This document shows positions 31,637 to 60,608 of a stretch of 64,000 nucleotides of DNA, piece after piece. Each line of letters opens with the position of its first letter. Within the stretch, counting starts at the first letter, position 1. Source of the DNA: an uncultured bacterium (GTDB taxonomy: Bacteria; Omnitrophota; Omnitrophia; Omnitrophales; Aquincolibacteriaceae); the NCBI GenBank assembly GCA_964606385.1, contig CAZSFZ010000005.1, positions 40,650 to 104,649 of the forward strand, read 5' to 3'. The notes beneath the pieces were generated by a model. That model did no database searches. It saw only the letters and a program-made list of their open reading frames with translations, and was not told the origin of the DNA. A program made the position numbers and the translations under genes.

Positions 31637-34600
31637 ATGTTTAAAAAAAGTGGCCAAACCCATCGAAGAGGATCAAGAGCCATTGCTCTTGGCGTGGCGT
31701 TTGTGTTCACTCTGACCAGCATCACCTGGTCCACGCCGACTCTGGCTGCACCTTCGGATGTCTCCCTTGCCCCTGCCATGCCGATTGAGAAACTTTCCAT
31801 TCCAGCTGAGATGGGCTCTATAAGTAAAACTTATCGTGGATCGGGAGACGTGGCCCCGCACGACCGCATGGTCGTGCTCATCCAGGACGCGCATGCGGTG
31901 GTGGACGCCCAGGAAAACATCTCGAAGATCCTGGGGCATCTCGGTAAGGCCTACGGCATACGTCTCACAGCGCTTGAAGGCGCCAAGGGCCGGCTCGAAC
32001 CCATTCTCTTCAGGGCGTTCCCGGATCCGATCGTGAAACGAAATATTCTTGCCGGTTACGAGAACCGGGCTGAGCTTTCGGGGCCGGAGATGGCTTCAGT
32101 ATTCCAGGAAGAAGCTGCTGATTTCCGGGGGATGGAAGATTGGGCCCTGTATGAGCAGAACTATTTCGCGTATCTCCGGGGCCAGGAGAAAAAAGAAGCC
32201 CTTCTTAAAAAATGGAGCGGCTTCAAGGAAAAGCGCGACAAGGAACGCGCCAAGGTCTATGACGAAAAACTCAACGAATTCCAGGAAGCCCGGGAAAATT
32301 TTCTCGCGGAAAGATCTTCATTGCTTGACCTCTTGGTGTATCTGTCGAACTTTAAGCCGCTTTTTAGTTCCGGGGACTACAAGGAGCTTCCGGGTCTGAT
32401 CGATTCGATGGGATATGAAAAGGCCGGGAAATCCGAGGCTCTTGTCCCGATGGTGCGGAAGATCGCGGATGAATTCAAGGTGAAATACCTTCGCAGCCTT
32501 GGCGTCAAGACCGAGATGAATTTTTATAACCGCTATCAGGCTTTCATGACCGGACAGATCACGGCAGGCCAGATGCTTCAGTATCTCGTTCAGGTGGGCC
32601 GCGAACACGGGAAGAACATCAAGCTGACGCCGGCCCTCAAGAAACTGCTCGGACACGCGGAGCTCCTTTCCGAGATCCGCGGGAGCACCCTCTATGAAGA
32701 ATTGCAGCGCTTTCTGCCGGTGGTGGAGGCCAGTCTTCTCAAGACCCCGGAACAGAGAAAAATGGCGGATGTTTACGGGAAGCTTTTTCTCCTCCGGGAA
32801 CTGATCGAACTTGAGCTCACGCACGAAGCTTTGGAGAAATACCAAAAAGAACCCGACGCCTACCTGGACCTTTTGGGAGACCCGCAATTCAGGAAAGACC
32901 TTGTTCCCGCGTTGGAATTTTACCGTGCAGCGTTAGAGCGCGATCAGGCATTTCTTGCCAAGATCAACGCGATGATGGCGGATTCGAAACAAAACAACGC
33001 GGCGGTGGTCGCGGGCGGTTTTCATACGAACGGGATCGAACGTCTTCTGAAAAATAAGGGGATCTCCTACGCGGTCGTGACCCCGAAGATCGCCTCGCTG
33101 GCCGGTATCGAGAATTACGCCAAGGTCATGAAGGGGGACATTTCTTTCAAGGACGATCTCAAGACCACTTATTTCGACGCGCTGATGCGGCATGCGTCCA
33201 AAGCATTGATCGAGGCATTACCGATCCCGGACCGTGTCAGGACTTTAAAGACCTGGCGGGACAATCTGATCCGCGAACTCGCCAAGCAGGGCCGCATTAC
33301 GGAGGCGGGAAAATACCTGCCGTATATCGACGGGATCCTCCAAACCATGCCGGAAATGGTCAGCGCTGTGGGACCCGTGCGAACGAAGGAAGAAACGCTT
33401 GACCTTATCCGCAAAGAACTCGAGCGGTTCAAAAAAGATTCCCTGGAGCGGATCTGGAAGACCTTTGAGTTTCAACTGGGTGTCTTCACCGACGGTCTCA
33501 AGCAGCTGATCGCGAAGAAAGATCTGAATGAGAGCTCCGTTTCATTACTGCTTAATCGTGCCAGTCAGACCAAGCCGCAATTCGTGAGCTGGGTGCAGTG
33601 TCTTGATGGGGAGATAGGAGTGCTTGGCCAATCTGTTCCCATGGTTCCGGACACCTCCAATATTTTCGCGACCCGGCCGCAGATTCTCGATGAGCTCGGC
33701 CGTATTGCGCAGGGAACCCCGCTAGGGATCGCAGGTCCCGCCATAGCTGCGACAGCAGCACAGTTATCCAAAATCGGAATGGCAACAGAAGAGGCTGTCC
33801 GGAGCGGAGAGATCGGAACCCCGGAGCCTTCAGTAACCGGTCCGGCAGTGGAGGGGATCGTGGATCAATTGGCCGCGGGGGCGGACAAGCGTGTCGTGGC
33901 CGCGCAGCTCGCAAACGAGATGAACTCGCAACTGCCCGGGCGTATCGCTCCCACGTCCGATCTTCGCTCGGAGGCCCGGTCTGAATTACGGGCGGAATTG
34001 GAAAAGAGGCTTGGTGCGATGCGCTCCTTTGGGCGGAATGAAAGATTTGCCGGAGCCACGGTTAGGATTTATCTGGAGAAGAAGGGGGAATTCTACGAAT
34101 GGGTCGTGAAGGCGAGTGATGCGAATATTTTTCATTTTGTGATGCGCGAGAACCTTGCCGGAGAATTGGTGGGCTATTACCAGCGTTTTGAAGTGGACAG
34201 ACAAAGTAGGTCTGAGACGGCCCAAGGTGACATTCATACCGTAGGGGAATCCAAGGCCTTCGGGAACCACCATTTTTTTGCCGGGAAGCGCGATCAGAGT
34301 ATGGATCCGCTTCATTTCTCGGTTCGTCCGGGCAAGGACGCGAAGGGAGCTTTCGTCAATATCGAGGTCGAAAGCAAGGAAAAAGGCGTCGAAGTCCGGT
34401 GGGATGGATCGATGGAAAAGGTTCCGGAGAAGGTTCTCGAAGCCAAAAAGGAAGAAGTGCCGCATGATGACACCCCGACGGCTGAAACGGTTGAAACTCT
34501 AGAACCCGAAGAGAGCGTGACCAACCGGGAAGCCTTTGGCCCTGAGCAGTACACGCTTGCCGGCATAACACGGTCGCCCCGGACCATTTCGGTGGATGTC

Positions 34601-37600
34601 CCGGCGTTCCGCTTCAGGAACGGCCGGATCGAGCAGAACCCGGATTACCACAATCCGGCGCTTGAAGGCGATGAGTCTTTTTCCGAGATCGTGAGAGCGC
34701 TTGAAAAAGAGCTCAGCGGTTTGTCGCAGCAAGATCAAGCGGTTCTGACGCAGGCAGCCAACGGATGGATCTTGGGAGATGACGCGGTTTCGGATTGGAT
34801 CACTCACGCGGTTCATCTTTTGAACGAGCGGGATTATACGAAGCGGGATCTGGGACTGCGGGATTTTATAAGGCAATATTTGAAAGATTCCCTGCGTTAT
34901 CTGCGTGCCTCCGGGCAGGAACAGGCGCGGTTTGCGGAAGAACTTGCCAAACATTACAGGTATTTTTCCCGAACGCAGCTCCTTCGGGAAAAACCGCAGA
35001 GCAAATTTTCGGTTCTTCATGGCAGCGATCTGAGCCGATTGCGCATTGCCCCTGAAGGGGATTCGAGATCGTTGAGCCCCCATGTGATGACGATCGAGCC
35101 CATCGTCTACCAGTTCAACAAAGGCAGACGTTTCCGGGGGGAGGAGATACCGCCCGAGAAGTTGGTGTTCGCCAAGTGGAAGGGAAGGACCTTTCTTTTT
35201 TATACTTCGCGGACGCATGCCGTTGCGGGAGTGACCCAGCACACATGGAGGCACGCGGAAGCTTATTTTGGATTAAGGGGCGGTTGGCTCGTAAAACATA
35301 TGGGCGAAAGTTATCCGGAGAACATGGATGATCTTCCTCCGCAAATAGGGCAATTGCTGGATGAGATCATTTACTCGCCTGACGTTCGTACGCTTCAGAG
35401 TTCTGAGGCCTTCGTGAAACGCGCGGATGAACTGGGCCTGCTCAATTTTACGGATTGGAACGAACTCGCGACTATTTTTGAGGCAAGGTCGGCGGATGAT
35501 CTCAAACGGACCATGGGGAAGGTGCGGGGTGCGGGACTTGTTGACAAATTATCGGGCATGAAAGTAAACCCTCAGATTTTGCAAGCTCGGGATTACATGC
35601 TTGAACAGTTCAACAATCCTGATGCGGACGATGAATCTCCCACGCAGAATTTTGAAGAACCGGAAACCGAGACCTGGGATACTCCCACCCGCTCCGAGGT
35701 CCGGGATGCTCTTTCGTCTGAACAAAACATTGCCGGCAGTGTTGAGCGTATCGGTCAAGCCCTGTTAAAGGTGGCCCCGAAAAACCTTGCGGGGGTTGAT
35801 ATTGCGGAAGCTGCCGTGGCGGTTCAAGCGTTCCGGTCCGATATGGGCGGGAATGTCAAAGTGGTTTTTCAACCTGACCGTACTGCTGAAAATCCTCGCC
35901 CCAAGAAGGTGATGCTGAGTGACGGCGAAGGGGAGATTATTTTACTTCGCAGCCAGGATCTTCTCGACATGATCGACCTACGGTATGTGGGTCGGGAAAT
36001 GAATATCAAGGAAAACATAAGAGAAGAGGATATCCCCGCTTTCAAGCGTCCCGAAGTAGCGGAGATCCACCAGGAACTCAAGCTCTTCCTTTCCACGCTA
36101 ACGAGGAACCGGTTCCTTGAAATGGTGAGAAATATTTCAGGAGATAGCTCCCTGCAATGGGAGGATCTGGGCGGGGACGTTTCCTTGGATGCGTACATGG
36201 CGGGTTCGAATAAGCATGTTTTTAAGGTGACGTTGACGAGATCAGCCGGAGATGCCCTGAGCTTTGCGGTCGCCACCAAAATAGGCCGCACAGACGCTTC
36301 GATCGCTCAAACCGAAATCAACGAGATGGAAGTGCTGAATGACAGGCCCGAGCAGGTGACGCCGCGATTTGGAGGGGCGCGGCATACAAAAGGCCGCCGC
36401 TGGTATGTTGAGGAGTTCATTGAAGGAAAGACCGTAAGGGACTTGGAGAAGGAAAATCGGGTCACGGAGGATGTGCGTCGTGGTGTGATCTCGGCCCTGC
36501 TGTCGGTTTCGATGGGGCTTAAAGGCAAAATGCCGCGCGATATGCACAGCAATAATTTTGTCGTCCGCCAAAGCGATGGGCGCGTCATTATGGTGGATAT
36601 CGGCGTAAACCGGTTCAATGTGCTCGACCAAATTGATAATGCGATCCAGAAGGAAACGCAGGCGCATCACCGGATCGCCAGTCTTGCTGTGATCCTGGCG
36701 CAGTATGGATATGTGGAGGGTTCTCCGGAGCAGAATGATTTTATTTTCGACACTCTCATGAACGATGAGGACCTCCCGCCCGGAGAGGGAAAAAGATGGG
36801 TCGAAGGCGTTTATCAGAATTTGGCAGGCAGGGACGTCTCCGAAATTGCGGACTTTTTGCATAACCGGAAATGGCTGAATCACTTCCGCAGTATTTTTGA
36901 ATCCCGAGGGTATGGCGAGTATCCCACCGAAGAACAATCGAAAAGCGCATTGCGGTCTGTAGCTTCCATGCTGCAAACAAGCATTACCCGGTACGCGGAA
37001 GAGCGAGGAATGAAATCAGGCCAGCCCTCTGTTTCTTTGATTCCTTCCGTCGGGGAACGCTCAACCCGCTCTGAGGTCCGAACGGGATCCGACGGAGCAG
37101 ACGCGTCCATCCCGGGGAATGTCCGGACCCAGGCGCTGGCGGAGATCGGTGGGGTGATGATAAGCGCCCGTTCTTTGGCGGATATGGTTCCGTTTGTCCA
37201 GGATGCGATCCGGGTTGCTGTAGCCGGGAACAACTACCAAGGTTTGGAAGAATTTTCAGAGATCTTGACAGTTATGGTTCCTGCTTTAGACGGGCAGGAT
37301 CATGTTTTTATCGTGGCTCCGCGATTTCCGACAAAAGAAAACAAAGTCGGAACATTTCATCAGGAACTTGTCGAAAAGGCCGGATTGGGATCCAGAAAAA
37401 AGGAAATGATCCGGGCCTCCCTTGATTTTGCCCCAATGGGAGTCCTCGAGGAGATTTATCTTATTCCGAGTATTTCAGGATTGCGTGTGGGCGATGACGG
37501 AACGGTCGATGCTTCCTCTAAACTGCCCGAGCTGAAACAGTTCGGATCATTTCTTTTCGATGTTTTTTCCGGGATGGGATACACGCCGCAGGATCTGGAT

Positions 37601-40600
37601 AAGATCAAGTTGACTCTGGATAGTTCTGTACAGGACGCCTTGGGCGGGCGTGAGATCCGTTTGTCTCAGCTAGCGGAGGTGAGTGCCGAAGACGCTTCTC
37701 GTTCCGAATTGCGGCTGCGGGACATGTACGGCTATTTGATGAATAAAGTGCTGATGCCCGCGGTGCTGGCTGTGTGGCTGGCGTTGCCTTCGTTCGCGAC
37801 AGCTCAGCCTAACCAACCTTACAGCGCGCGTTTCGATCCTGCAATGGGCATGGAAGCCGGCGCTGAAAATCTTTACTCCGGTTATCGGGCGCTGAATGAA
37901 TTTGCGATCGATCCTGTGACCGGGAGCATTCCTTACCTTGAGAATAACCCGTTGGGCAGGTTCGTGAAATTGTTTGCTGTGGACCGTATAAGCGCTGACT
38001 TTTTCTGGGTGGCCCAGCATGAATTTTTCGGTCACGGGGCGCAGTCGCGCGAGGTCGGGGATTATGGATCTTCGTATCGTATGAATTTTGAGACACCGAG
38101 GCTGGAGTATTTCAACGGCTATAGGATCTTCGGTTGGTGGTCGGGGGCTGCGTCGCGAGGCGACCGGGAATATTCGACGGACGAATCTCTCGAAACTATT
38201 GCCGGCGGCATGGAAAGCACACAGGTCATGTCAGACTGGATCCGCTGGAACATGTTCCGTTACGGCGCAACGGCACAGGACGCGGTTCTTTATTATGTCT
38301 CAAAACTCGATCTGACGGATTACATTGAGACGACGCCCAGCCCGGCTTCTCGCGCGGGATTGATCGTGAAGGGTGGCGGTAACAGCGATGTGGATGCCTA
38401 TGGTGAAGAGATGACCGCGAAGTACGGGGAGGATGCGGATCTTTGGAGCGATATGGAGCGGGCCGCGCTTTGGAATGCGCTGGATCCCACGATTTGGATC
38501 TCGGCTTTCCGCCAGCTGGATTATGTAGCGCGGGGAACCCGGGAATTCCGGTTGCCCCGGATCCTGCCCTATACTGGAGCCAATCTGACGCCGCTGGGCC
38601 CCGAATATTATTTGGGAGCTCATTTTACGGCTGCGGAGCTTTACTATGACGTATATGGTAGAAAAGGCGTTGGGCCTGCGGGCGAATTTTATGGGGCGGG
38701 TCTTCGTGTTGGAGATATTGATCTGGGGAACGGCTACTCACTTGGGATGAACCTCGATGCGTGGGACCAGGAACGATTCGGCTTTGCGGTGAGGACAACT
38801 GTAAGCAAAAGTTTGAGTGATCGATTCAGGATCAGCGCTGGCGCCGATTATAAAACAGAAGGTTATCTGAAAGGGCGTCAAAGCGATGAGGGAGTCTCTG
38901 GCTTTATCAGTGTTCAAGGGGCTTTGTCGCGTCCGGAGGTTCGCTCGACCTCTGGCCGCTCGGAATTGCGCGAAGGAGAGGTAAGCGTCAAGGCTGGATT
39001 ATTTGATGCCGTGATCCAATTGAATGAAGCGGTTAAATATCTCATTATGCCCGCTAGCATGCTGGCGGGATTCTATTTGTGGAAAAGCTCGCTGCTCTTG
39101 CTCGCCAAAGCCTCCCTATTGCCTGAAGGAACGCTCATGATCGTGGCCAGTTTCACCACAGCATTTCTCGGTGTTGTATTAGGTGCTAATGCGATGCTTC
39201 GACTGCTGTTTAATCCGGAGAGGACCACGATCTATCGGGGCATTCATGGGAGCGCGGATACCATTCTTGATGTTCTCAGACGCGGTGACATTGTTGAAGC
39301 GCCCAAACCAAGTGACGAGATCGCCTGGAGCGAAGTGATAGGGCATTTTGGAGGCAAACCCAGCTCCTCTCTCAAATCCATGACGCCACAAAAACGATGG
39401 GCTGAATATTACACGCTATTTTCCGCTTACGGGCAGAAGGATGTTTCGCGGGGCGAAAGATTTCTTAATGCGTTCAAAGAAATCTTTGCCAGAAAATTCA
39501 TGAAAGATCAGCGTATTAAGATCGTCACGACCCCCGAGGAGGGCGCGCAACTGCTTTCGGAGTTGCAGGAGCAGGGCGGAATTAACGGAGAAATAGGCTT
39601 GCTTGAAACGGTGCCGGGCGTGCCCAACGCGCAAAGCCGTATGCTTTACTGGAATCCGTTCGGTGGACATATCGAAATTGCGCTTGCTTACGGTGTGACG
39701 CCGAAAGAGATCTCGACGGTGGAGATCTTTATCCCGCGCGAAGGTAACGAGCATCTCGGTTTAGAAGCCTTATCCGAAAGAGCGGCTGGGAGTGTTCGTT
39801 CCGAGTTGCGGGGAATGATTTCACGCATGACGCTGGGATTAACGATGGCGGCGATCCTGTCGTTCTCGGCGCTTTCGGCGGAAGGTGCGCAGAAGCGTGA
39901 CGCGAAGACGAGTCAGATACAGACGGAACTTGTTTCGATGGGATATTTGCAAGACAGCGATGTCCAAGGGAACTATGGGTTCTACGGACCTAAAACGAAA
40001 GCGGCGGTTACGCGGCTTCAGACCGATCTAAAAAAGACTGGCCATTATAAGGGGCCGATCGATGGCGACTATGGCCCCGGGACTGATCGGGCGCTCAGAG
40101 CTTGGCAGCAAGCTCAGGGAACCGCTCCGGCCGTGCCGGAGGCGGCTGTGCCTGTCGAAGGGGATCAGGATGTTATCGATGCTCTTGAAGATCTCAGGGG
40201 CCTTCGGCGTGATGCTCCCGAACATATATTTAATCTGCTGTTAGACAGCGGTCAAAGGCGTCTTTCATTTGACGCGAAATCAGAGCTTGTTTCACAAATG
40301 AGTTTTCAAGAGGTCTTGGAAAAAGTTTCGGTTCGCTCCGGGCTTGCGGCATCTGAATTTGAAAGGATCGCGCAGAAATATGATGTCCCGGTTGAATCCC
40401 TGATCGCCCGCGGCTTTAAAGAGAATCCCAAATTTGATCCGTTGGTCAGCGGGCCGGACGGAAGGGATATCGGATTATTCCAGGTAAGGATCGACACGGT
40501 TCGGGACGGGAGGTTTTTCCCGCTGCTCAAGGATCTTGCCGTTCAGGAGGGGTTGCTCAAAGGGGCCGAAGCGAAAGCAAGTTCGCGTTCGATCACGGAT

Positions 40601-43600
40601 GCCAAGCTGAAACAGATCCTCAAAGATTCTTCCATCAATGCGGAAATGAGTATCATGATCCACAAGACTTATTCTCAAGAAGTGGCAAGGCTGAAAACTG
40701 TTACCGTCACGGGAGCCGCCGGGATCGGAAGCCAAGCCCTTGAAGTTTATTTGTCGGGGGATTATTTAGAAAAAGGGCAGGCTGCTTATAACATCGGGGT
40801 CGGGAATTTCCAGAAGATCGTGAATACCGTTTCGGTCTCGGGGATTTCGGGATTGCCGGCCTCACTGGCAAAAGTCGCCCGGCGCGGGCAGGCTTACGCA
40901 GCGGAAATAGAGGGATTCCAGGAAGTTCTGGAGGCTACCAACAATGTCCCTTCGACCGGCCAAGATCTTTTAGCCATGAATACCCGTGGCCGCTCCGAGG
41001 TGAGGACTGTGGATCAAAGTGAAATTGCAGAACGTGTCGCGGCGAAGCATCCGTCGTCCAGCCGGTTTTCGAAAGAACCGATCTTGGGTTTTGAGATCAT
41101 GAGCGTGGATTGGAAAAATATTCCCAAGGCGATTCGGGACCGGCTTGGGAAAGTGGATCAAACCTACAAGGAGGGAGTCGAAAAAGTTCTCGCGGCGAAT
41201 ATCGGGGGATTCATTGCGCTTCAGATGAAAGGGGACCAGCCGGATTTTTATATCGTTAGCCCCCGGGTGGCGCAGGGGAAATACCAGAAAACCGTGATCG
41301 GTTATGAGGGGTATGACAAACTGGTCCGGGCGATGAAAGCGGGTGTGGTCGAGATGATCCGCATGTCGGATCTCGGCTATTCAAAAGACGAATCCGTTTC
41401 CATTCAAGTGGATTGGGGGAGCGGTCCCGAGAAGCAGACGAAGCCCGCGGGTCAGGATGCCTATCTCGCCCATGACGGGAAACAGTGGTACATGCTGAAT
41501 GTCAACGTCGAGGGGCTTCCCATCAGTTATGTTCCCGTTTCAGCGTCCGGATCTGCGGCGAATCGTGTCGATCTGATGATCAAAGGACTGATCGATGTGA
41601 TCGCGCGCCGGCAGAATTTGTCCGATGAAGACCGGAAAAAAGTTGAGATGATTGCGGAACTTGCCAAAACGGCGCATTCGGGCCAGAAACGGAAGAACGG
41701 GGATCCGTATTTCCGGCATCCGCTCGAAATGGCGTGGTACATGATGACGCGATTCGGTAATTATTCGCCGGTTGAGTTTCAAGTCAATCTTCTGCATGAC
41801 ACTCGCGAGGACCAGGCCGAATTTTATGAAGCGATCAAAGCGATCCTGGATGATATGTTCGCGCAGTTGGAAAAACTGGGAGATTCCGCCCAAACCGAAC
41901 AGGATCGCAGGAATTACAACTTGATCCGACTTGGCGTGAGGCTTTTAACGAAGATCGTGCCTGAGGAGGTCCGGGGCGCGGATGGGACTGTCAAATGGCA
42001 AATTACCCACAAGGATGTGAACGGAAAGGATGTTACGAGGACTTTTGATAGCGAGGCCGATGCCGATGCGGCCGGACAGATCCAATACTACACGCAAATG
42101 TTGAATCCGCACCGCTATTTCAGAAAAGAGATCATTGCCGCGGGGATTTCCGAGGATGAGGCCGCGCGGATCCGCGGTCGGTACGCGGATTATGACGATG
42201 CCTTTATTCGCGGGATCCAGCAAGCCAAATTAAGTGACAGGATCGTTAACACACGGGACCTGATGAACCTTTTCAACCCGCAAGTCGAGCAGACCGATTC
42301 GATCCGGAAATTTCCCGCGCGGATGATCGGTAAAACGCTGGATTGGATGATCCCGAATCTGGTTGAAGCGGAAAATGCCGGGCAAGGGCTGCATCCCGAT
42401 GATCGCCGGATGTTCTATGAGGGATTTGTGGGGATCCTTGTGGATTACGCCAATCTTGATACGGGATTAAATCCCATGGTCAAGCCGCTGAAAGACGCCG
42501 CCCTCGCGACGCTCCGGGATCCCCGCTTGCAAGTCGGTATTGAGATCGCGGGAATGCGCCGGGAGGTCGACGAGGCGATACAACATCGTTCCGAAGTCCG
42601 TGCGGGAGAGGTTCAGCCGCTCCGGCTGAACGAGCAAAAAGAGAATGAGTTTTATGAGAGGTGGGGAGAGTCATTAAAGAAGAGCGGCCATCGTTCACCT
42701 CAAGCCCTTATCAATATTGCGCAACATATCCGCGAAAGCCGGCAGGTCGTAAGCTATGCGGATTTTCTTGGGCAAATGAAGGGGATGCAGCCGAAGCTGG
42801 CAGCGGCCTTGGGGACCACGGGATCTTATGCGGTTGTTTGGGATGAGCCGGCGGAAGGCGAGGCGGATCACATGAAATTGCACAAATCCCGCCGCTGGGC
42901 GTGGTCGCTTATCCGTGATGGCTTGCGCGCGCCGTCAGCCGAGATCTATGGGAACGAGCTCGGTAAGGCTCGCGGCGTCTCAACATTTGTGATCGCGGAT
43001 GACGCGAGTTATAGCGGAACTCAGATCCGGGAAACGATTGAAAGGATCTCAAAGGCGAATCCGAGGGCTCAAATCACTATAGCTGTTCCCTACATGACAA
43101 GCCGGGCCGAACGCGTGATACGGTCCCGGAGAGGGCTTCCGGAGGGCGTTTCCATTAGAGTTCTGGAACATGAGACCATGCCGACGCTTTCTGAGATTCT
43201 CACGAAGTCCGAACGCGACCTTTTTGCCGATAACCGTACTGCATTCGGGACGGTGACGATCGATGGGAAATCCTACGATGTGCTGCTGACGGCCGTGACG
43301 CTCTTCGATCATAAGGTCGCTGATTCTTGGTCGGTTTATCAGCGTCTCGCACAATTCTATGATCCAGTGACGCCGCCCTACAAGAATGAGCGGAGCGCGT
43401 ATTATCAGGAAGAATCAGGAACGCTTGCTGCCGAAGAAGTTCCGGTGCGGGCGGAGGTGCTAGAGCCTGAATTTTATAAAACAGAGACAAAGTTCCAGCT
43501 TGTGGATTCGAGCGCGCGACCGGGGGAACCGGAAGCCCAAAAGGTTCCCACGCTGCGAGCGTTTGAAGTGTTTAATCTGGATCTGACCACAGAGGAACAG

Positions 43601-46600
43601 CGGAATGTTGTAGAACGGATCCAGAACGGACAAGCCCCGAATGTGATGCTCTTGACCCGTGAGGCGTTGCTTAGCAAAGGAGCGTTCACGGCGGATACAA
43701 AAGCGGGAATTTTCCCTGCGGAGCTGAGGGGAACGGAGTTGGCATTGGGGGATAACGGAAAAGCTTTGTTCCAGACCTTGTATGTGAATCTTTTGGATCC
43801 GAGGCTGCAGGGTGAAGGAAATATCCGTGTCAGCGTCGCCGGTTTGTTCCGAATTAGAGTTGACCGGGCCGATATCACGGGATTTTCAGAACCTCTTTAC
43901 CTGGTGATTCTCAATAAAAATCGTCGGACTCCCGAAGGCCTTTTGACCGTTGGAGCGATCGGCGGAGCTTATCAAACCCAAGGTGTGGCGGCGCCGCAGG
44001 ATATACGCGGACTTATAGAAAAACCGGATTCCGAAGCTTTCCTGCAATGGTTCGTGACGGGACAGGGGCGGGAAACCAACCCTTTGAGAGAATTTGAAGA
44101 AGAGGTCCTTGGCGCAGCCGGCGACCAGGTAAATCTTTTTGACGAGCTTCCCACAGCCCTTCGTAATTTCAAGACCCGTTCGGAAGCACGGGAGCAAATG
44201 GTAGACATGGATGTAGGTAAAACATACGCGATGACGCTTGGCTCGAATGGCGTATGGGAAAAGAAAGAAGTCGGGGCGGATGTATGGCCCAAGAATGCGG
44301 AAGATATCAAGCCGGGCCGTATGGGGATGATCGATCTGACCGCGGCAGGTCATCGGCCGATCGGTTTTGAACTGAATTTTTGCAGCGCGTTGGTTCTTTT
44401 TACCCCGACCGCAGTCTATTATGCCCATTCGTTTTTTGAGAATCTGAATAATCTGCACGATACCAACCGGTTGATCCGAAATCAGTTTTACGGCCGCGAA
44501 CAGCAAGTCACCGCGATGTTAGGATGGGGGACGGATTATCAGCGGATGCCGGCTGAGAAACAGGAGAAGCTTGTGTCGCAGCAAAAGGCCTTTGGCGACA
44601 TTCTGTCCGAAGGATTTAATACATTATCCCTGGAGCCCGGTGAAAATATCATCCTAAAAGTCGCTTTTGATCCCAAAACACAGACGCTCTATGCGCGGCA
44701 GGAAAAACCGGTGGGCCGTTCTGAAGCGAGAGAAGAGGATGCAACCTCGAGCGTTCTCCGGGTCAAAGGGGACAAAATACCGATCCTGGTGCGTGATTTT
44801 ATCGGAACGCAGATCAAATCGGGCACGAGTGCCCTTGAGATGGGCATCGGGTCGGGGGCCTTGACACGCGATCTCGCCGAAGGGGCCTCCCGATTGAAGG
44901 ACGTTCAATTCGTTGGCGTGGATATCAATCCGGAAGCGGTGCAGATGTCCCGGTCGCTGCTCGGCAAATACAGGAATGTGCGCGTCTTGGAAAGTGATCT
45001 CTTCTCAGCCTTCACAAAGGGAGAAAAATTCGATGTGATTTTCTGGAATCCTCCCTGGTCCTCCCAGGGCGAGGCCGGCACGCTGGCGCTCGCAAAATCC
45101 GATCCCGGCTTCGAGACTCTTAGCCGCTTCTTTAAAGAAGCACCCATGTTTTTGAAGCCTGGGGGAAAAGTGTTCCTGATCATGCCTGTCGAGGCCATGG
45201 AGGAGATCTGGGAGGATGCCTCCGCGAAGTTCGAGATCGATAGAAAAGGCTGGGAGAAAACCAAGAATTCCAACATTGGAATTTTTGAGTTGAAACCTAG
45301 GGCGCTTGAGCAAGTTCAGGCGTCGGATGCCGTGATTTCATCGGATTCCGATTGGCGGGAGGTTTTTCAGGACAATAGTCGTCCGTTATTTGTGGAAGTT
45401 GGCGTGGGAGACGGCAAGAAAAGCATGTTGGTCGCTGAAAGCCGTCCGGACGCGAATTTCATCTTGATTGAACCGGAGGCAAGCGCTTTCCAAAAATTGC
45501 AGCAGACGGTTCGTGATTCGGGATTAACTAATATCCGGATCGTACGGGGTCAGGACGGCGACCTGTTTGATCTTCAAAAGGGAAGCGGCTTTATCGACCT
45601 GATCTATTGCGTGGCGCCGTTCGTGAACACGCCGTGGCCTTATTTCTTTTCCGAAGGTCCGAAGGCGCCCACATACCAGCGTGCATTGAGCTTATTGAAA
45701 AGCCGCGGGGAGATACTGGTCATGCCCGATGAAACGCTTGCTGGCGAGTGGTACGACCATTTTGAAGGGCAATACCCGAATGCCGAGATCGTGCCGCAAA
45801 GCCGTGTTTTCCCGGGATTGAATGCCGCCCTGGAACGCTATCATCAACAAGTGCTCGATTTTAAATATAGCGACCCTATTGTGATCACACGGCGCTCAGA
45901 GAATCGCGCAGTTTCAGGTTTTTGGTCTTCTGTGGAGTCGAAAGATATTGTCGCGGAAGCTCGGGACAAGGGGCCGGACGCGGCACGTGCGATGTTTGAA
46001 CGATCAGGCCGCACGGAATTGGGAAAGATTGGTGATGCTTACGATGCGGGAAGTACGGATTTGATGTCGGTTTTGAGAGATGCGCCGTCAATGTCCGCGG
46101 CGCTTCCCGAGGCAGTCGCGCAGCTATCCGGCCGTATGGGGAATGATGCCAATTTGTTCAACTGGCCCGCCCTGCAAGCCGGCCTTGAGAATATCCTGAT
46201 GCCGACGGCGATGGCGCTCGAAACCGTGAACGCGGATGTGGCGAATATTGTTCCCGCCCAGATGAAGCTTCTCATCGATACGTTGGCAAATATCAAAGGA
46301 TCGCTCACGATCGGTCTGGACCTCGGAACGGGGAAGGATGCGGAGATCGGCAGCGCGGTTTTGGAACAGCTTATCAAAGCGATCGGCGAGCGCAGCGGCA
46401 TCGTCAATGAACTTGCCGTGAGCGGTAAGCTGCCCGGGCCGGCGCGTCAAACCCTGAAATCAAGGGGTATCAATGACCGGCCGATCCGGCCGAACCAGTC
46501 CTTTATTCCGATCAATGCGCAGGATGCTGTTCCGCTGGTCATGAGTTCGAGCGCGGCGAACGGTGTGATCCATCAAGTATTCTATCCGATCGTCGGCGAT

Positions 46601-46882
46601 CGAGGAGCCGTGACCGATACGCTTGTGAACGATTACGCGAATCTCCTGGAAGTGGTGGCGGCGATCCACTGTGCGGATATCATTTCACGTCAGCCCAATT
46701 TGCTGAAGCAGCCCGAGCTTTTGAAAGCCGAACTTCTTAAGACGCTTTTCCGTCAGGAGCAGGGCGCTGTTGAGAACCTGATCCAGGTGCGCGCGGGAGG
46801 ACGCGGATTTACGGTCTCGAGCGCGGCGGTGAAGGTCTATCTCGAGATGATGGCGAAGCAGTCGGTCGAGAAGGCAGCGTAA
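31637..46882 (+). CDS. Giant secreted/membrane multidomain protein (5081 aa). N-terminal signal/TM; kinase-like (~36120-36650); internal signal-like segment (37739-37808) followed by HEFFGH metallopeptidase motif (38018-38035); TM pair (~39040-39210); second internal signal-like segment (39815-39890) followed by PG_binding_1 domain (~39900-40110) and SLT-like region; SpoT-type HD domain (~41650-41830); PRTase-like motif (~42985-43025); HemK-like methyltransferase (~44790-45290, NPPW); TrmB-like methyltransferase (~45370-45600)
   Basis: 15.2-kb stop-free frame. Motifs read: AIALGVAFVFTLTSITWSTPTLAAPS; KVTLTRSAGD...EEFIEG...PRDMHSNNFVV...MVDIG (kinase-like); AQHEFFGHG; YGFYGPKTKAAVTRLQ...DGDYGPGTDRALRAWQ; AHSGQKRKNGDPYFRHPLEMA...LLHDTRED; FVIADDASYSGTQI; LEMGIGSGALT...FDVIFWNPPW; LFVEVGVGDGKKSMLVAESRPDANFILIEPE. 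Ten RSE[VLA]R motifs mark the boundaries. Confidence 0.85.
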   Translation: MFKKSGQTHRRGSRAIALGVAFVFTLTSITWSTPTLAAPSDVSLAPAMPIEKLSIPAEMGSISKTYRGSGDVAPHDRMVVLIQDAHAVVDAQENISKILGHLGKAYGIRLTALEGAKGRLEPILFRAFPDPIVKRNILAGYENRAELSGPEMASVFQEEAADFRGMEDWALYEQNYFAYLRGQEKKEALLKKWSGFKEKRDKERAKVYDEKLNEFQEARENFLAERSSLLDLLVYLSNFKPLFSSGDYKELPGLIDSMGYEKAGKSEALVPMVRKIADEFKVKYLRSLGVKTEMNFYNRYQAFMTGQITAGQMLQYLVQVGREHGKNIKLTPALKKLLGHAELLSEIRGSTLYEELQRFLPVVEASLLKTPEQRKMADVYGKLFLLRELIELELTHEALEKYQKEPDAYLDLLGDPQFRKDLVPALEFYRAALERDQAFLAKINAMMADSKQNNAAVVAGGFHTNGIERLLKNKGISYAVVTPKIASLAGIENYAKVMKGDISFKDDLKTTYFDALMRHASKALIEALPIPDRVRTLKTWRDNLIRELAKQGRITEAGKYLPYIDGILQTMPEMVSAVGPVRTKEETLDLIRKELERFKKDSLERIWKTFEFQLGVFTDGLKQLIAKKDLNESSVSLLLNRASQTKPQFVSWVQCLDGEIGVLGQSVPMVPDTSNIFATRPQILDELGRIAQGTPLGIAGPAIAATAAQLSKIGMATEEAVRSGEIGTPEPSVTGPAVEGIVDQLAAGADKRVVAAQLANEMNSQLPGRIAPTSDLRSEARSELRAELEKRLGAMRSFGRNERFAGATVRIYLEKKGEFYEWVVKASDANIFHFVMRENLAGELVGYYQRFEVDRQSRSETAQGDIHTVGESKAFGNHHFFAGKRDQSMDPLHFSVRPGKDAKGAFVNIEVESKEKGVEVRWDGSMEKVPEKVLEAKKEEVPHDDTPTAETVETLEPEESVTNREAFGPEQYTLAGITRSPRTISVDVPAFRFRNGRIEQNPDYHNPALEGDESFSEIVRALEKELSGLSQQDQAVLTQAANGWILGDDAVSDWITHAVHLLNERDYTKRDLGLRDFIRQYLKDSLRYLRASGQEQARFAEELAKHYRYFSRTQLLREKPQSKFSVLHGSDLSRLRIAPEGDSRSLSPHVMTIEPIVYQFNKGRRFRGEEIPPEKLVFAKWKGRTFLFYTSRTHAVAGVTQHTWRHAEAYFGLRGGWLVKHMGESYPENMDDLPPQIGQLLDEIIYSPDVRTLQSSEAFVKRADELGLLNFTDWNELATIFEARSADDLKRTMGKVRGAGLVDKLSGMKVNPQILQARDYMLEQFNNPDADDESPTQNFEEPETETWDTPTRSEVRDALSSEQNIAGSVERIGQALLKVAPKNLAGVDIAEAAVAVQAFRSDMGGNVKVVFQPDRTAENPRPKKVMLSDGEGEIILLRSQDLLDMIDLRYVGREMNIKENIREEDIPAFKRPEVAEIHQELKLFLSTLTRNRFLEMVRNISGDSSLQWEDLGGDVSLDAYMAGSNKHVFKVTLTRSAGDALSFAVATKIGRTDASIAQTEINEMEVLNDRPEQVTPRFGGARHTKGRRWYVEEFIEGKTVRDLEKENRVTEDVRRGVISALLSVSMGLKGKMPRDMHSNNFVVRQSDGRVIMVDIGVNRFNVLDQIDNAIQKETQAHHRIASLAVILAQYGYVEGSPEQNDFIFDTLMNDEDLPPGEGKRWVEGVYQNLAGRDVSEIADFLHNRKWLNHFRSIFESRGYGEYPTEEQSKSALRSVASMLQTSITRYAEERGMKSGQPSVSLIPSVGERSTRSEVRTGSDGADASIPGNVRTQALAEIGGVMISARSLADMVPFVQDAIRVAVAGNNYQGLEEFSEILTVMVPALDGQDHVFIVAPRFPTKENKVGTFHQELVEKAGLGSRKKEMIRASLDFAPMGVLEEIYLIPSISGLRVGDDGTVDASSKLPELKQFGSFLFDVFSGMGYTPQDLDKIKLTLDSSVQDALGGREIRLSQLAEVSAEDASRSELRLRDMYGYLMNKVLMPAVLAVWLALPSFATAQPNQPYSARFDPAMGMEAGAENLYSGYRALNEFAIDPVTGSIPYLENNPLGRFVKLFAVDRISADFFWVAQHEFFGHGAQSREVGDYGSSYRMNFETPRLEYFNGYRIFGWWSGAASRGDREYSTDESLETIAGGMESTQVMSDWIRWNMFRYGATAQDAVLYYVSKLDLTDYIETTPSPASRAGLIVKGGGNSDVDAYGEEMTAKYGEDADLWSDMERAALWNALDPTIWISAFRQLDYVARGTREFRLPRILPYTGANLTPLGPEYYLGAHFTAAELYYDVYGRKGVGPAGEFYGAGLRVGDIDLGNGYSLGMNLDAWDQERFGFAVRTTVSKSLSDRFRISAGADYKTEGYLKGRQSDEGVSGFISVQGALSRPEVRSTSGRSELREGEVSVKAGLFDAVIQLNEAVKYLIMPASMLAGFYLWKSSLLLLAKASLLPEGTLMIVASFTTAFLGVVLGANAMLRLLFNPERTTIYRGIHGSADTILDVLRRGDIVEAPKPSDEIAWSEVIGHFGGKPSSSLKSMTPQKRWAEYYTLFSAYGQKDVSRGERFLNAFKEIFARKFMKDQRIKIVTTPEEGAQLLSELQEQGGINGEIGLLETVPGVPNAQSRMLYWNPFGGHIEIALAYGVTPKEISTVEIFIPREGNEHLGLEALSERAAGSVRSELRGMISRMTLGLTMAAILSFSALSAEGAQKRDAKTSQIQTELVSMGYLQDSDVQGNYGFYGPKTKAAVTRLQTDLKKTGHYKGPIDGDYGPGTDRALRAWQQAQGTAPAVPEAAVPVEGDQDVIDALEDLRGLRRDAPEHIFNLLLDSGQRRLSFDAKSELVSQMSFQEVLEKVSVRSGLAASEFERIAQKYDVPVESLIARGFKENPKFDPLVSGPDGRDIGLFQVRIDTVRDGRFFPLLKDLAVQEGLLKGAEAKASSRSITDAKLKQILKDSSINAEMSIMIHKTYSQEVARLKTVTVTGAAGIGSQALEVYLSGDYLEKGQAAYNIGVGNFQKIVNTVSVSGISGLPASLAKVARRGQAYAAEIEGFQEVLEATNNVPSTGQDLLAMNTRGRSEVRTVDQSEIAERVAAKHPSSSRFSKEPILGFEIMSVDWKNIPKAIRDRLGKVDQTYKEGVEKVLAANIGGFIALQMKGDQPDFYIVSPRVAQGKYQKTVIGYEGYDKLVRAMKAGVVEMIRMSDLGYSKDESVSIQVDWGSGPEKQTKPAGQDAYLAHDGKQWYMLNVNVEGLPISYVPVSASGSAANRVDLMIKGLIDVIARRQNLSDEDRKKVEMIAELAKTAHSGQKRKNGDPYFRHPLEMAWYMMTRFGNYSPVEFQVNLLHDTREDQAEFYEAIKAILDDMFAQLEKLGDSAQTEQDRRNYNLIRLGVRLLTKIVPEEVRGADGTVKWQITHKDVNGKDVTRTFDSEADADAAGQIQYYTQMLNPHRYFRKEIIAAGISEDEAARIRGRYADYDDAFIRGIQQAKLSDRIVNTRDLMNLFNPQVEQTDSIRKFPARMIGKTLDWMIPNLVEAENAGQGLHPDDRRMFYEGFVGILVDYANLDTGLNPMVKPLKDAALATLRDPRLQVGIEIAGMRREVDEAIQHRSEVRAGEVQPLRLNEQKENEFYERWGESLKKSGHRSPQALINIAQHIRESRQVVSYADFLGQMKGMQPKLAAALGTTGSYAVVWDEPAEGEADHMKLHKSRRWAWSLIRDGLRAPSAEIYGNELGKARGVSTFVIADDASYSGTQIRETIERISKANPRAQITIAVPYMTSRAERVIRSRRGLPEGVSIRVLEHETMPTLSEILTKSERDLFADNRTAFGTVTIDGKSYDVLLTAVTLFDHKVADSWSVYQRLAQFYDPVTPPYKNERSAYYQEESGTLAAEEVPVRAEVLEPEFYKTETKFQLVDSSARPGEPEAQKVPTLRAFEVFNLDLTTEEQRNVVERIQNGQAPNVMLLTREALLSKGAFTADTKAGIFPAELRGTELALGDNGKALFQTLYVNLLDPRLQGEGNIRVSVAGLFRIRVDRADITGFSEPLYLVILNKNRRTPEGLLTVGAIGGAYQTQGVAAPQDIRGLIEKPDSEAFLQWFVTGQGRETNPLREFEEEVLGAAGDQVNLFDELPTALRNFKTRSEAREQMVDMDVGKTYAMTLGSNGVWEKKEVGADVWPKNAEDIKPGRMGMIDLTAAGHRPIGFELNFCSALVLFTPTAVYYAHSFFENLNNLHDTNRLIRNQFYGREQQVTAMLGWGTDYQRMPAEKQEKLVSQQKAFGDILSEGFNTLSLEPGENIILKVAFDPKTQTLYARQEKPVGRSEAREEDATSSVLRVKGDKIPILVRDFIGTQIKSGTSALEMGIGSGALTRDLAEGASRLKDVQFVGVDINPEAVQMSRSLLGKYRNVRVLESDLFSAFTKGEKFDVIFWNPPWSSQGEAGTLALAKSDPGFETLSRFFKEAPMFLKPGGKVFLIMPVEAMEEIWEDASAKFEIDRKGWEKTKNSNIGIFELKPRALEQVQASDAVISSDSDWREVFQDNSRPLFVEVGVGDGKKSMLVAESRPDANFILIEPEASAFQKLQQTVRDSGLTNIRIVRGQDGDLFDLQKGSGFIDLIYCVAPFVNTPWPYFFSEGPKAPTYQRALSLLKSRGEILVMPDETLAGEWYDHFEGQYPNAEIVPQSRVFPGLNAALERYHQQVLDFKYSDPIVITRRSENRAVSGFWSSVESKDIVAEARDKGPDAARAMFERSGRTELGKIGDAYDAGSTDLMSVLRDAPSMSAALPEAVAQLSGRMGNDANLFNWPALQAGLENILMPTAMALETVNADVANIVPAQMKLLIDTLANIKGSLTIGLDLGTGKDAEIGSAVLEQLIKAIGERSGIVNELAVSGKLPGPARQTLKSRGINDRPIRPNQSFIPINAQDAVPLVMSSSAANGVIHQVFYPIVGDRGAVTDTLVNDYANLLEVVAAIHCADIISRQPNLLKQPELLKAELLKTLFRQEQGAVENLIQVRAGGRGFTVSSAAVKVYLEMMAKQSVEKAA

Positions 46883-59225: not shown

Positions 59226-60608
59226 ATGCGGAGGGGTATGACCACTCAGACCGTAACGGTGAAGAAAGCGTCAAAGAAGAATTTTTTGAAGAGGCTGGAG
59301 GAACCTCTCAAAATCGTCGAGGCTTTTCTTATTTTTATTTTCCTCCCGATGCTTGTTTATATCCTCATGTGGACCTGGGGGATCCCTTTCCGTTTTGTTT
59401 ATTACATTTGCGTGACCATCTATGGCTTTACGGCGGTGATGACGATCTTTGAAGCGCTTCTCGCCGTTAAGAGAAAGTACGCATTCAGCAGAAAAAAACA
59501 GGAAATCCCCATCCGGCCGACCTTCACCGTTATTATTTCCGCATTTCTTCCGAACGAACAGAATATCATTTTGGGCGTTCTTGATCATTTTCTCAATAAA
59601 ATGGGGGAATACGAAGGGCAAATCATTCAAATCATTCTGTGTTATGACACGCCGCACGATCTTCCCGTGGAAGATGATCTGAGACGTCTTGCGGCTGCTT
59701 ATCCTAAGTTCATGCCCTACAAGGCGGGAGGAGGAGGAAAAGCTGCCAGCTTGAATAAGGCGATCAAGTTCGTCAAGGGAGCTATCACTGTTCTTTTTGA
59801 TGCGGATCATCTTCCCGAAAGCGAGGCTTTTGGCAAGGCTGCGCGTTGGCTCTATGGGGGGTACGATATTGTCCAGGGAAGAAACATTATCAGGAACGCC
59901 GCTGAGAATCCTTTGACCGCCATGATCGCGGTTGAATTTGAGACAATCTACTCGATAGGCCATGTGGCCAAATCCCTTATCTGTGATACGGCCATTTTCG
60001 GTGGTTCCAATGGATATTTTCTGACGAGCTCGCTCAAGCAATATCATTTCGACCCTAATCAAATGACCGAAGATATCGATCTTTCGGTCCGGACCCTCTT
60101 GGATGGAGGACGGATCCTTCATGACCGGAGTCTTATTGCAAGCGAACTTGCACCGACGACCTGGAAAAGTCTCTGGCTCCAAAGAAAACGATGGTGCAAT
60201 GGATGGTTTCAGGTTATGTTGGCTCATCAGTGGAATGTTTGGTGGAGCAAGAATTTGAGACTCTCCCAAAAACTCTACTGGACCTATTTGCTTCTCTGGG
60301 CGCAGGCCATTTACCCGATCGGGGGTTTTCAGGTCTATGCCCTGATCCTTGCCTGGTGGATCGTGACGGGAAGATTTGATCTCGGTTTTGATTGGTATAT
60401 TCTCCTCACGCTTGTTCTTACGGTGATTTCGGGTCCCATCCAGATCTATTGCGCTTATTTGCGGCAGGCAAAGAAAATGCCGGCGTTCTATTTTGTTAAA
60501 TATGGCTTCTTCAATATCTACTACTCATTTTTCAAGATGCTTGTGGGCCTTGTGGGGATGAGGGATTGCATCGCGCATGAAAAAAAATGGGTTGTTACGA
60601 GCCGATGA
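59226..60608 (+). CDS. Membrane-embedded family 2 glycosyltransferase (processive, cellulose/chitin-synthase-like)
   Basis: DAD (VLFDADH) motif, then QRKRWCNGW (QxxRW), with TM helices on both sides. Confidence 0.8.
   Translation: MRRGMTTQTVTVKKASKKNFLKRLEEPLKIVEAFLIFIFLPMLVYILMWTWGIPFRFVYYICVTIYGFTAVMTIFEALLAVKRKYAFSRKKQEIPIRPTFTVIISAFLPNEQNIILGVLDHFLNKMGEYEGQIIQIILCYDTPHDLPVEDDLRRLAAAYPKFMPYKAGGGGKAASLNKAIKFVKGAITVLFDADHLPESEAFGKAARWLYGGYDIVQGRNIIRNAAENPLTAMIAVEFETIYSIGHVAKSLICDTAIFGGSNGYFLTSSLKQYHFDPNQMTEDIDLSVRTLLDGGRILHDRSLIASELAPTTWKSLWLQRKRWCNGWFQVMLAHQWNVWWSKNLRLSQKLYWTYLLLWAQAIYPIGGFQVYALILAWWIVTGRFDLGFDWYILLTLVLTVISGPIQIYCAYLRQAKKMPAFYFVKYGFFNIYYSFFKMLVGLVGMRDCIAHEKKWVVTSR

Follow-up and report, generated by a model that had tools for sequence, protein, structure and literature searches.

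A polyprotein with a conserved junction motif is a known kind of system, and what would be new in the locus described here is its setting in a bacterial chromosome. The locus lies in a 64,000-nucleotide (nt) stretch of DNA from an uncultured bacterium of the Omnitrophota (contig CAZSFZ010000005.1, positions 40,650–104,649 of the forward strand; hereafter the window, in whose own coordinates all positions are given), where two very long open reading frames (ORFs) were found with ordinary housekeeping genes around and between them. The second of these, ORF2 (31637–46882, + strand), encodes 5,081 amino acids (aa) in a polyprotein-like chain of 12 modules separated by the five-residue motif RSExR. 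On balance we lean towards the reading that ORF2 and its companion ORF1 are bacterial polyproteins that are cut at R[SA]ExR, each product then being targeted separately.

A close parallel is the capsid–prM junction of flaviviruses, where a basic site for a cytosolic protease stands directly before an internal signal and a signal-peptidase site lies on the far side of it, one ORF thereby giving both cytosolic and exported or membrane products. ORF2 shares the order of basic protease-like site, hydrophobic signal and signal-peptidase site, and we infer that it too is cleaved. The flavivirus junction belongs to a eukaryotic virus that is translated at the endoplasmic reticulum and uses the protease NS2B-NS3, whereas ORF2 is a bacterial chromosomal gene with the motif R[SA]ExR; moreover, the Omnitrophota motif also separates dozens of soluble enzymes. 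A second parallel is offered by the MARTX toxins of Vibrio, proteins of 3,500–5,300 aa with exchangeable effector cassettes that are freed by linker cleavage and whose content differs between close strains. These toxins carry RTX repeats and a type I secretion signal; their cysteine protease is activated by inositol phosphate and cuts after Leu, and their cassettes are without Sec signals or membrane proteins. Their likeness to ORF2 lies in exchangeable cassettes parted by linkers, which in MARTX are cleavable; Pfam gave neither RTX repeats nor a cysteine protease domain in the ORF2 modules, and no type I secretion genes are present among the neighbours.

ORF2 also resembles the polyvalent proteins of phages and conjugative elements in being multi-enzyme but differs in its housekeeping context and in the absence of a recognisable MPTase. 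Polyvalent proteins combine many unrelated enzymatic domains, methyltransferases, RelA/SpoT and NUDIX-type domains among them, and rely on zincin-like MPTase domains; processing by an embedded peptidase has been proposed and the analogy to viral polyproteins drawn, with no conserved junction motif and no occurrence of the term 'signal peptide' in that account (Iyer et al. 2017, PMC5512222). In the Omnitrophota themselves, giant proteins of 10,000–147,000 aa have been reported, for which cleavage points are stated to be unknown, C39 or S8 peptidases are proposed and internal signal-peptide calls are treated as artefacts (West-Roberts et al. 2023, bioRxiv 10.1101/2023.11.21.568195; 2026 preprint, 10.64898/2026.06.07.730766). 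One published Omnitrophota study gave up piecewise structure prediction because the cleavage points were unknown, and whether the giant ORFs of the phylum yield a single protein or many products is stated as open in the literature. Like these giants, ORF2 comes from the Omnitrophota, begins with a signal or anchor, combines several kinds of enzyme (methyltransferase, NUDIX, HEAT, kinases) and has many stretches without annotation. The Archaeovorin/Dockerin-type giants exceed 10,000 aa and carry dockerin/TSP3, C39 or S8, and SecA-like domains, whereas ORF2 has none of these by Pfam. The RSExR junction motif is unmentioned in the two preprints; a literature search gave no paper pairing 'Omnitrophota' with 'polyprotein', and searches for the strings RSELR, RSEVR and RSEAR returned unrelated matches only.

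Junction motifs and hydrophobic segments of ORF2

Three of the junctions consist of the sequence RSELR and are followed closely by a hydrophobic region (all features are on the + strand). At the first (37700–37714, aa 2022–2026), the motif is followed by LRDMYGYL and then by MNKVLMPAVLAVWLALPSFATA|QP (37739–37810), an internal Sec-type signal peptide (37739–37804) with a predicted signal-peptidase site at ATA|QP. This segment lies at the start of module 5 (37715–38956), which belongs to what we call the HEFFGH family after the sequence at 38018–38035. After the second RSELR (38957–38971, aa 2441–2445), 21 residues separate the motif from a hydrophobic hairpin of two predicted transmembrane (TM) helices (39035–39211, aa 2467–2525) at the start of module 6 (38972–39796). 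The third (39797–39811, aa 2721–2725) is followed by a single G and then by MISRMTLGLTMAAILSFSALSAEGA (39815–39889), a moderately hydrophobic, signal-peptide-like segment with a possible LSA|EG site; it opens module 7 (39812–40990), which is made up of a PG_binding_1 domain (40001–40123) and a C-terminal region. An earlier note on this DNA had described RSELR followed by Met and a signal-peptide-like stretch at 37739 and 39815, as well as a TM pair behind the motif at 38957; translation and motif listing verified the two former positions, and a hydropathy scan placed the pair at 39035–39211.

Membrane-like hydrophobic regions are few in ORF2. The hydropathy scan gave only four in the whole chain, that is the N-terminal one (aa 15–31) and the three internal ones, a fifth peak (aa 5003–5017, 1.76) being left uncounted on account of charged residues inside it. 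All three internal regions begin within 30 aa after an RSELR; that all three should fall within 30 aa after any of the 12 RSExR has a permutation probability of 3.5e-4 (200,000 permutations). The motif itself is strongly over-represented, with 12 copies in ORF2 and eight in ORF1, compared with about one expected from background rates in ∼11,000 residues. All 20 RSExR in the frame of ORF1 and ORF2 fall within those two ORFs, and the other five frames combined contain 10. Synonymous codons differ among the copies, indicating that the constraint acts mainly on the protein.

The hydropathy scan also showed that the N-terminal anchor and both internal signals carry positive charges on their N-side, from which the positive-inside rule predicts an N-in/C-out orientation for all three. 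Since there is no TM segment between aa 32 and 2036, these orientations would be incompatible in one uncut chain, and such a chain would be predicted to misplace either the peptidoglycan (PG)-binding domain, in the cytoplasm, or the S-adenosylmethionine- and nucleotide-dependent enzymes, outside. This topology is difficult to reconcile with the alternative that ORF2 is a single, uncut giant membrane protein, in which the hydrophobic segments are TM anchors left by gene fusions and RSExR is a conserved linker element that does something else, for instance as a hinge, as a cluster of topogenic charges, or as a site of docking or modification. A strictness extending over five residues would likewise be unusual for a passive linker. 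An uncut chain agrees with the published view of long Omnitrophota proteins, which are assigned a signal peptide plus TM segments or TM segments only, with internal signal-peptide calls discarded, and with the fact that no protease was found. We regard this alternative as unlikely, while giving it serious weight; further evidence that bears on it comes from the modules and from the wider family, described below.

Given that a Met lies 1–8 residues after RSELR before both signal-like segments, the modules might instead be translated separately from internal Met codons, as the earlier note had raised, or the ORF might be a fusion artefact of assembly or annotation. Neither a Shine-Dalgarno-like sequence nor the element 'ataagga', seen before real genes, was found ahead of the internal Mets, and in relatives the stretch from the motif to the hydrophobic core is free of Met in many equivalent signals. 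Signal peptides that follow a motif without a usable Met occur, for instance, at aa 3855 of the ORF2 orthologue P0002, with the sequence RSELR-GQLLATLALVALTSMTGFAA|QV, and at aa 1214 in locus L008. An artefact is contradicted by dozens of independent assemblies in which ORFs of this design run without interruption, and we attach hardly any credence to either version. An alternative genetic code or stop read-through behind the long ORFs was also rejected, because many independent assemblies have these ORFs uninterrupted under the standard code.

The chain as a whole begins with module 0 (31637–33964), an N-terminal signal or anchor (31679–31729) plus a conserved leader domain, which ends at the double junction RSEARSELR (33965–33991, aa 777–785). 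RSEVR junctions follow at 35690–35704 (aa 1352; retained in P0002 at aa 1692) and 37067–37081 (aa 1811). Downstream of module 7, the RSEVR at 40991–41005 (aa 3119) precedes a RelA/SpoT-type HD module and that at 42587–42601 (aa 3651) a module of PRTase-CE plus Sa_NUDIX. RSEAR occurs at 44177–44191 (aa 4181) and, before a double methyltransferase module, at 44717–44731 (aa 4361), and RSENR (45893–45907, aa 4753) precedes the C-terminal module. ORF2 contains several unrelated, effector-type enzymatic domains (PRTase-CE, Sa_NUDIX, RelA/SpoT-type HD, methyltransferases and a kinase), while modules 0, 2, 4, 5, 6, 10 and 12 have no match in Pfam or NCBIfam.

Two modules behind internal signal-like segments

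A Sec-type signal peptide combines a positive n-region with an uncharged, hydrophobic h-region of some 7–18 residues and has small residues at −3 and −1. The first internal segment, MNKVLMPAVLAVWLALPSFATA, has by inspection and hydropathy the three parts of a classical signal peptide: an n-region MNK, an h-region VLMPAVLAVWLALPSF and a c-region ATA|QP. Like the second, it is situated more than 2,000 residues inside ORF2 and so not at the translated N-terminus; the position expected of a signal peptide would hold for either segment only after cleavage at the preceding RSELR. Although a word-indexed protein search found nothing for module 5, an exhaustive HMMER scan brought up 338 relatives, nearly all of them standalone proteins (median 421 aa), and in a crude test of hydropathy ∼72% of these open with a signal peptide of classical form. 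The homologues labelled P0003–P0151 are standalone, uncharacterised proteins of about 420 aa. The alignment of their N-terminal signal peptides with the internal segment extends as far as the A|QP junction, which is common to several of them and is located a few residues before a conserved mature start, 'DPxxxMExGA'. At the other end, the standalone proteins stop at the last beta-strand of module 5, frequently with a terminal Phe. Module 5 therefore matches the standalone HEFFGH proteins from end to end (signal peptide, invariant motif QHExFGHGxRxRE, helical domain and C-terminal sheet). The standalone proteins are encoded by genes of their own and truly begin with the signal peptide, whereas in ORF2 and P0002 the whole unit is found ∼2,000 residues into the chain, flanked by two RSELR.

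Because the signal peptide and the C-terminal strand of module 5 coincide with those of the standalone proteins, we conclude from these alignments that the module was once an exported protein in its own right and was fused in frame, and that its first segment is an inherited signal peptide. An AlphaFold2 model of module 5, built on 61 sequences (predicted local distance difference test score 89.8), consists of a signal helix, a low-confidence or disordered hinge, a helical domain with QHExFGHGxRxRE and an eight-strand sheet, with the C-terminal end of the module disordered. The closest solved structures to the sheet are outer-membrane porins, as weak matches, and the product of module 5 is probably outer-membrane-associated. 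A module equivalent to a complete protein, with a cleavable AXA signal peptide and a porin-like C-terminal strand, is not what would be expected of an uncut membrane protein. A distant giant protein, P0011 (5,200 aa, ENA), has the same leader domain and a HEFFGH module at a similar place (aa 2090–2463), without a signal peptide ahead of it and without RSExR, indicating that the HEFFGH module can also occur as a plain fusion.

The second segment, MISRMTLGLTMAAILSFSALSAEGA, has an n-region MISR and an 18-residue, moderately hydrophobic h-region, MTLGLTMAAILSFSAL, followed by small residues, its c-region (LSA|EG) being less clear. A near-identical opening, RSESR-GMISGTLKRTLMTLAVLGSLAVSEAVA, is found in another Omnitrophota ORF (L016). 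The PG_binding_1 domain of module 7 (PF01471) was matched with E 9e-13 (48.6 bits against a cutoff of 23) and fits a periplasmic location. The earlier note had also called this module SLT-like, a label that did not hold up: the SLT/family-1 lytic transglycosylase profile (PF01464) gave no Pfam match even at E ≤ 10, and a PDB sequence search gave none. The order of motifs ES...GLFQV...AYNIG in the C-terminal region of module 7 resembles, by eye only, that of family-1 lytic transglycosylases, in which a catalytic Glu-Ser comes before the motifs GLMQ and AYNxG. Beyond the PG-binding domain itself, no standalone homologue of module 7 was found, a word-indexed protein search giving one PG_binding match, and scans of genome and metagenome contigs with single modules 5 and 7 gave no match. 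The proposal of the earlier note that formerly independent secreted-protein genes were fused in frame, to be checked by looking for standalone homologues with N-terminal signal peptides, is thus borne out for the HEFFGH module, with its 338 relatives, aligned signal peptides and shared ends, but not for the PG-binding module. As judged from sequence, fusion of a once-independent secreted protein is established for this one module.

The motif and its cassettes across the Omnitrophota

A profile of the ORF2 N-terminal domain, whose relatives come almost only from metagenome-assembled genomes (MAGs) of Candidatus Omnitrophota, retrieved 80 loci, among which 33 ORFs have at least two RSExR (110,653 aa). 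These 33 multi-module ORFs contain 196 RSExR compared with 2.5 expected from composition. RAExR is present in 51 copies, and the variants KSExR, RSExK, RTExR and RSDxR in 2–4 copies each; position four of the motif is V, L, A or M in 79%. In the giant ORFs the density of RSExR is 1.77 per 1,000 aa, as opposed to 0.04 in the other ORFs of the 80 loci (∼45 times rarer), a comparison that sets aside four further giant neighbouring ORFs with 3–13 copies each. Successive motifs lie at a median distance of 287 aa (interquartile range 187–417), with 31 distances below 60 aa family-wide, and their flanks, rich in S/T/P/A/G before and in E/G/S after, are like flexible linkers. RSExR is a recurrent short motif at the boundaries of independently folding units.

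Family-wide, 17 of 104 internal hydrophobic segments begin within 40 aa after a motif (7.3% expected, p 0.0013). The 87 segments that lie within modules are compatible with an uncut chain, as is the weak enrichment that a looser heuristic gives after motifs. Targeting signals at module starts are a minority feature, as would be expected for ordinary proteins, most modules being soluble and many TM segments lying inside membrane modules. In the pair formed by ORF2 and P0002 the association with RSELR is much tighter: a hydrophobic start follows three of the four RSELR and none of the eight other RSExR in ORF2, and all four RSELR in P0002, which amounts to 7/8 versus 0/15 for the two combined. 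RSELR was nevertheless rejected as a specific mark of exported modules, since the association is weak family-wide (7/38 RSELR against 10/158 other RSExR, p 0.026) and absent in ORF1.

P0002 itself (5,705 aa, 11 RSExR) is encoded on a 171-kb JGI metagenome contig and has the same design as ORF2 with some cassettes swapped. The homology between the two comes in blocks of 77–92% identity that are bounded by motifs, with different cassettes between them. One such block begins two residues ahead of the RSELR at aa 2022 (aa 2151 in P0002) and ends at the RSELR at aa 2441 (aa 2570 in P0002). Modules 4, 6, 7, 9 and 10 of ORF2 are absent or replaced in P0002, where four other modules separate the HEFFGH module from the HD module and an additional RSENR divides the two methyltransferase domains. 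Such differences in whole cassettes point to a fast, in-frame cassette turnover. In other ORFs, modules of ORF2 recur in changed order, each beginning right after a motif.

Homology breakpoints at the motifs could also be explained if the motif served chiefly at the DNA or RNA level, as microhomology for in-frame cassette exchange or as a small RNA structure, with the amino acids a by-product and no proteolysis. The codons of the motif in the window and in loci L004–L063 are indeed strongly biased: the first Arg is CGT/CGC in 79% (40% in the background), Ser is TCC in 51% (23%) and TCN in 94% (68%), and the last Arg is CGG in 46% (27%), the overall pattern being CGY-TCC-GAR-NTN-CGG. This bias points to an additional nucleotide- or translation-level constraint, which could stem from accuracy selection, shared descent of linkers, cassette-exchange microhomology or a small RNA stem. 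As a complete explanation, however, a role in nucleic acid seems highly improbable. All synonymous codons occur, the fourth codon is free within the hydrophobic/small class, and the motif is confined to the coding frame; replacements of R by K, of S by T and of E by D are near-absent, consistent with selection on exact residues, and Rfam gave no match.

When 131 modules were scanned against Pfam, ∼20 gave a match, to one family each; among these families are patatin, MarC, GT2, APH kinase, phosphatases, deaminases, epimerase, NUDIX, PRTase-CE, methyltransferases and a receiver domain. In one ORF (L031, aa 2641–2909), a complete multi-pass membrane protein of the MarC family stands between two RSExR (profile positions 2–203 of 203, E 6e-38). 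In terms of sequence, the HEFFGH module, module 0 and this MarC module are each equal to a whole protein. The Tat consensus is S/T-R-R-x-F-L-K before a weakly hydrophobic h-region and an AxA site. In the ORF of locus L035 (aa 1080–1140), a double motif, RSEMRKTRSEAR, is followed by SSRRYFLGLCLKSFAFASVAGLPSVVLA|QS, so that the module after aa 1087 opens with SSRRYFLG, a weakly hydrophobic core and VLA|QS; this opening fits the twin-arginine consensus by eye only, and no Tat model of NCBIfam or Pfam was matched. A whole MarC protein and a Tat-like signal between motifs are further features that an uncut membrane protein would leave unexplained. Six signal-bearing modules from relatives had no match in Pfam or NCBIfam. 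In the ORF of locus L023 (aa 1566–1619), a 53-residue inter-motif 'module' consists of the signal-peptide-like EPLMRRHWVQLALGLVAAPAATIGEALA|QP plus ∼20 residues and may represent a small secreted peptide released from a polyprotein.

ORF1 (20–17764, + strand), likewise polyprotein-like, encodes at least 5,914 aa, its frame being open at the 5′ edge of the window. Its eight RSExR begin at nt 6740, 7556, 10769, 11396, 12851, 12893, 14351 and 17027, and one RAEVR is present at 17222. Two motif-delimited modules that follow one another (485 and 486 aa; aa 4278 and 4292–4778) have starts that look closely alike by eye, FSAGPATGKGAV and FSAGPGTGKGTL; a BLASTP comparison of ORF1 with itself at E 1e-3 gave the self-match only. 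ORF1 contains HEAT, DUF218 and NUDIX domains and a multi-TM block (aa 2908–3539), and its hydrophobic segments do not follow motifs.

The rapid turnover of cassettes between close relatives and the conflict-effector-like content of ORF2 (PRTase-CE to kinase, listed above) are also features that a multi-effector weapon of a predatory or parasitic cell might show, MARTX-like or polyvalent-like, which would be delivered and cut in the target, with the signal-bearing modules using the Sec system of the victim to enter its periplasm and attack its wall from within. Phosphatases, APH kinases, patatin phospholipases and a MafB19-type deaminase occur in related polyproteins, and giant genes of the Omnitrophota have been linked in the literature to predation and the degradation of cell walls; the presence of patatin, deaminase, kinase and NUDIX-type domains hints at use against prey. 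However, no secretion-system genes, RTX repeats, cysteine protease domain or other delivery domain were found in the window, hydrophobic signals inside the chain would make it harder for the producer to export it intact, proteins of the HEFFGH family are widespread, standalone and exported and unlike a typical toxin, and some modules (MarC, GT2, epimerase) have everyday roles in the membrane or in metabolism. The housekeeping neighbours likewise argue against a weapon, and we consider this explanation quite improbable.

These neighbours include NadE (NAD synthase), ArgRS, MiaA, HflX, Tal-PGI and a LysM amidase, and further PFOR, acetyl-CoA synthetase and NrdDG; the ArgRS protein was also matched on a metagenome contig. 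As no match to the DNA of 37000–41000 was obtained in phage and plasmid collections and the neighbours are housekeeping genes, a mobile-element origin of ORF2 was rejected. Tal-PGI (24683–27556, + strand) is a transaldolase fused to a phosphoglucose isomerase (957 aa) with no in-frame RSExR; it is an ordinary fusion and contrasts with the motif-joined modules. A third long ORF (60581–64000, + strand; at least 1,140 aa) runs past the 3′ end of the window; it has TPR repeats in higher-order units of 561–564 nt, an N-terminal hydrophobic segment and no RSExR.

Leader domain and proposed processing of the chain

The leader domain heads every ORF retrieved from the 80 loci. Its invariant residues are IQDAH, E114, R435 and GGxH; in ORF2, IQDAH is located at 31880–31894 and GGFH at 33014–33025. 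In members of the TraB/PrgY/Tiki/ChaN superfamily, both of the half-domains contain a strand and, behind it, a conserved His motif (GxxH), and a Glu and an Arg are conserved as well. The Pfam families TraB_PrgY_gumN and Cofac_haem_bdg matched the leader weakly and below the gathering threshold in 7 and 6 of 52 members, respectively, with a best E of 0.002–0.004 and 0.074 for ORF2 itself; nothing significant was obtained in a PDB profile search or a Foldseek fold search. By its residue pattern, module 0 is possibly a divergent hydrolase of the TraB/Tiki/ChaN type, and it is a weak candidate for the protease that would act on the motif. A standalone homologue of module 0, P0155 (964 aa), has its own N-terminal anchor and no RSExR. 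A shared sorting signal in the C-terminal modules of ORF1, ORF2 and P0155 was considered and rejected, as BLAST detected no similarity among them.

Two distant leader-domain ORFs, L045 (9686–19411) and L061 (2164–9666), are without RSExR and have other recurrent short motifs in linker-like contexts, namely six copies of ARF[TNS]E and eight copies of G[AS]RL[SA], often paired ∼30 aa apart. These may be lineage-specific junction sites, and swapped short motifs in distant relatives are the pattern that would be expected of a protease and its site co-evolving. Giant RSExR ORFs are found directly upstream of leader-domain ORFs in loci L008 (1–3084 aa), L023 (1–1320), L035 (3–3223, with 13 motifs) and L052 (1–2752), indicating that polyprotein genes often occur in tandem in several MAGs. 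One MAG, JBAZER01, has at least four leader-domain ORFs.

In the model that we propose, each ORF would encode a leader domain followed by cassettes, each a complete protein, joined by short flexible linkers with the sequence R-[S/A]-E-[V/L/A/M]-R. The motif would most likely be the recognition site of a dedicated endopeptidase on the cytoplasmic side, which would cut at some position within it. After cutting, the HEFFGH and peptidoglycan-binding proteins would be exported by Sec by means of signals now at or near a free N-terminus and would be trimmed by signal peptidase I, while module 6 would use the hairpin at its N-terminus for insertion; the modules of the kinase, HD, PRTase/NUDIX and methyltransferase types would remain soluble. 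Release by cleavage appears to be the best-supported mechanism, and the reading in the earlier note of a polyprotein with separately exported products would account best for the wider data.

Several observations weigh against this model. No protease gene was recognised among the genes of the window, and the sole peptidase-like module, that with HEFFGH, is itself predicted to be exported. The leader is an uneasy choice for the enzyme, as it would be expected outside the cytoplasm from its N-terminal anchor, whereas the processing enzyme should act inside, and its match to known hydrolases is weak, with non-significant Foldseek results in addition to the Pfam values given above. Hydrophobic segments may also serve as internal signal-anchors without a free N-terminus. 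In the looser family-wide heuristic, hydrophobic stretches follow a motif in 12.1% compared with 9.2% (p 0.07), and two weak homologues of the C-terminal part of module 7 (L007 and L013) follow RSELR without a signal peptide. Finally, the codon bias inside the motif is not explained by a purely protein-level site.

A broader reading, which we hold tentatively and with somewhat less than even confidence, is that a clade of the Omnitrophota expresses part of its proteome in the manner of RNA viruses, from leader-anchored chromosomal ORFs that encode dozens of complete proteins, with a dedicated protease acting at R[SA]ExR and with junctions that double as breakpoints of cassette exchange. The cargo would comprise soluble enzymes, Sec-exported and possibly Tat-exported proteins, and whole multi-pass membrane proteins.

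The presence of a strict motif at the limits of complete proteins provides explicit, testable predicted cut sites for giant proteins of the Omnitrophota, the first concrete ones. If the polyprotein reading is true, the giant ORFs could be annotated module by module, the lineage-specific motifs RSExR, ARFTE and G[AS]RL[SA] would serve as cleavage maps, and current topology predictions, in which internal signal peptides are discarded, would need revision. It would imply a new protease–substrate system and a mechanism of in-frame gene shuffling. The 'giant proteins' of the phylum, which have been taken for single chains with as many as 147 TM helices, would then be largely polyproteins, and the Omnitrophota would be the first cellular organisms to make a wide range of cytoplasmic, exported and membrane proteins from polyproteins in the manner of viruses.

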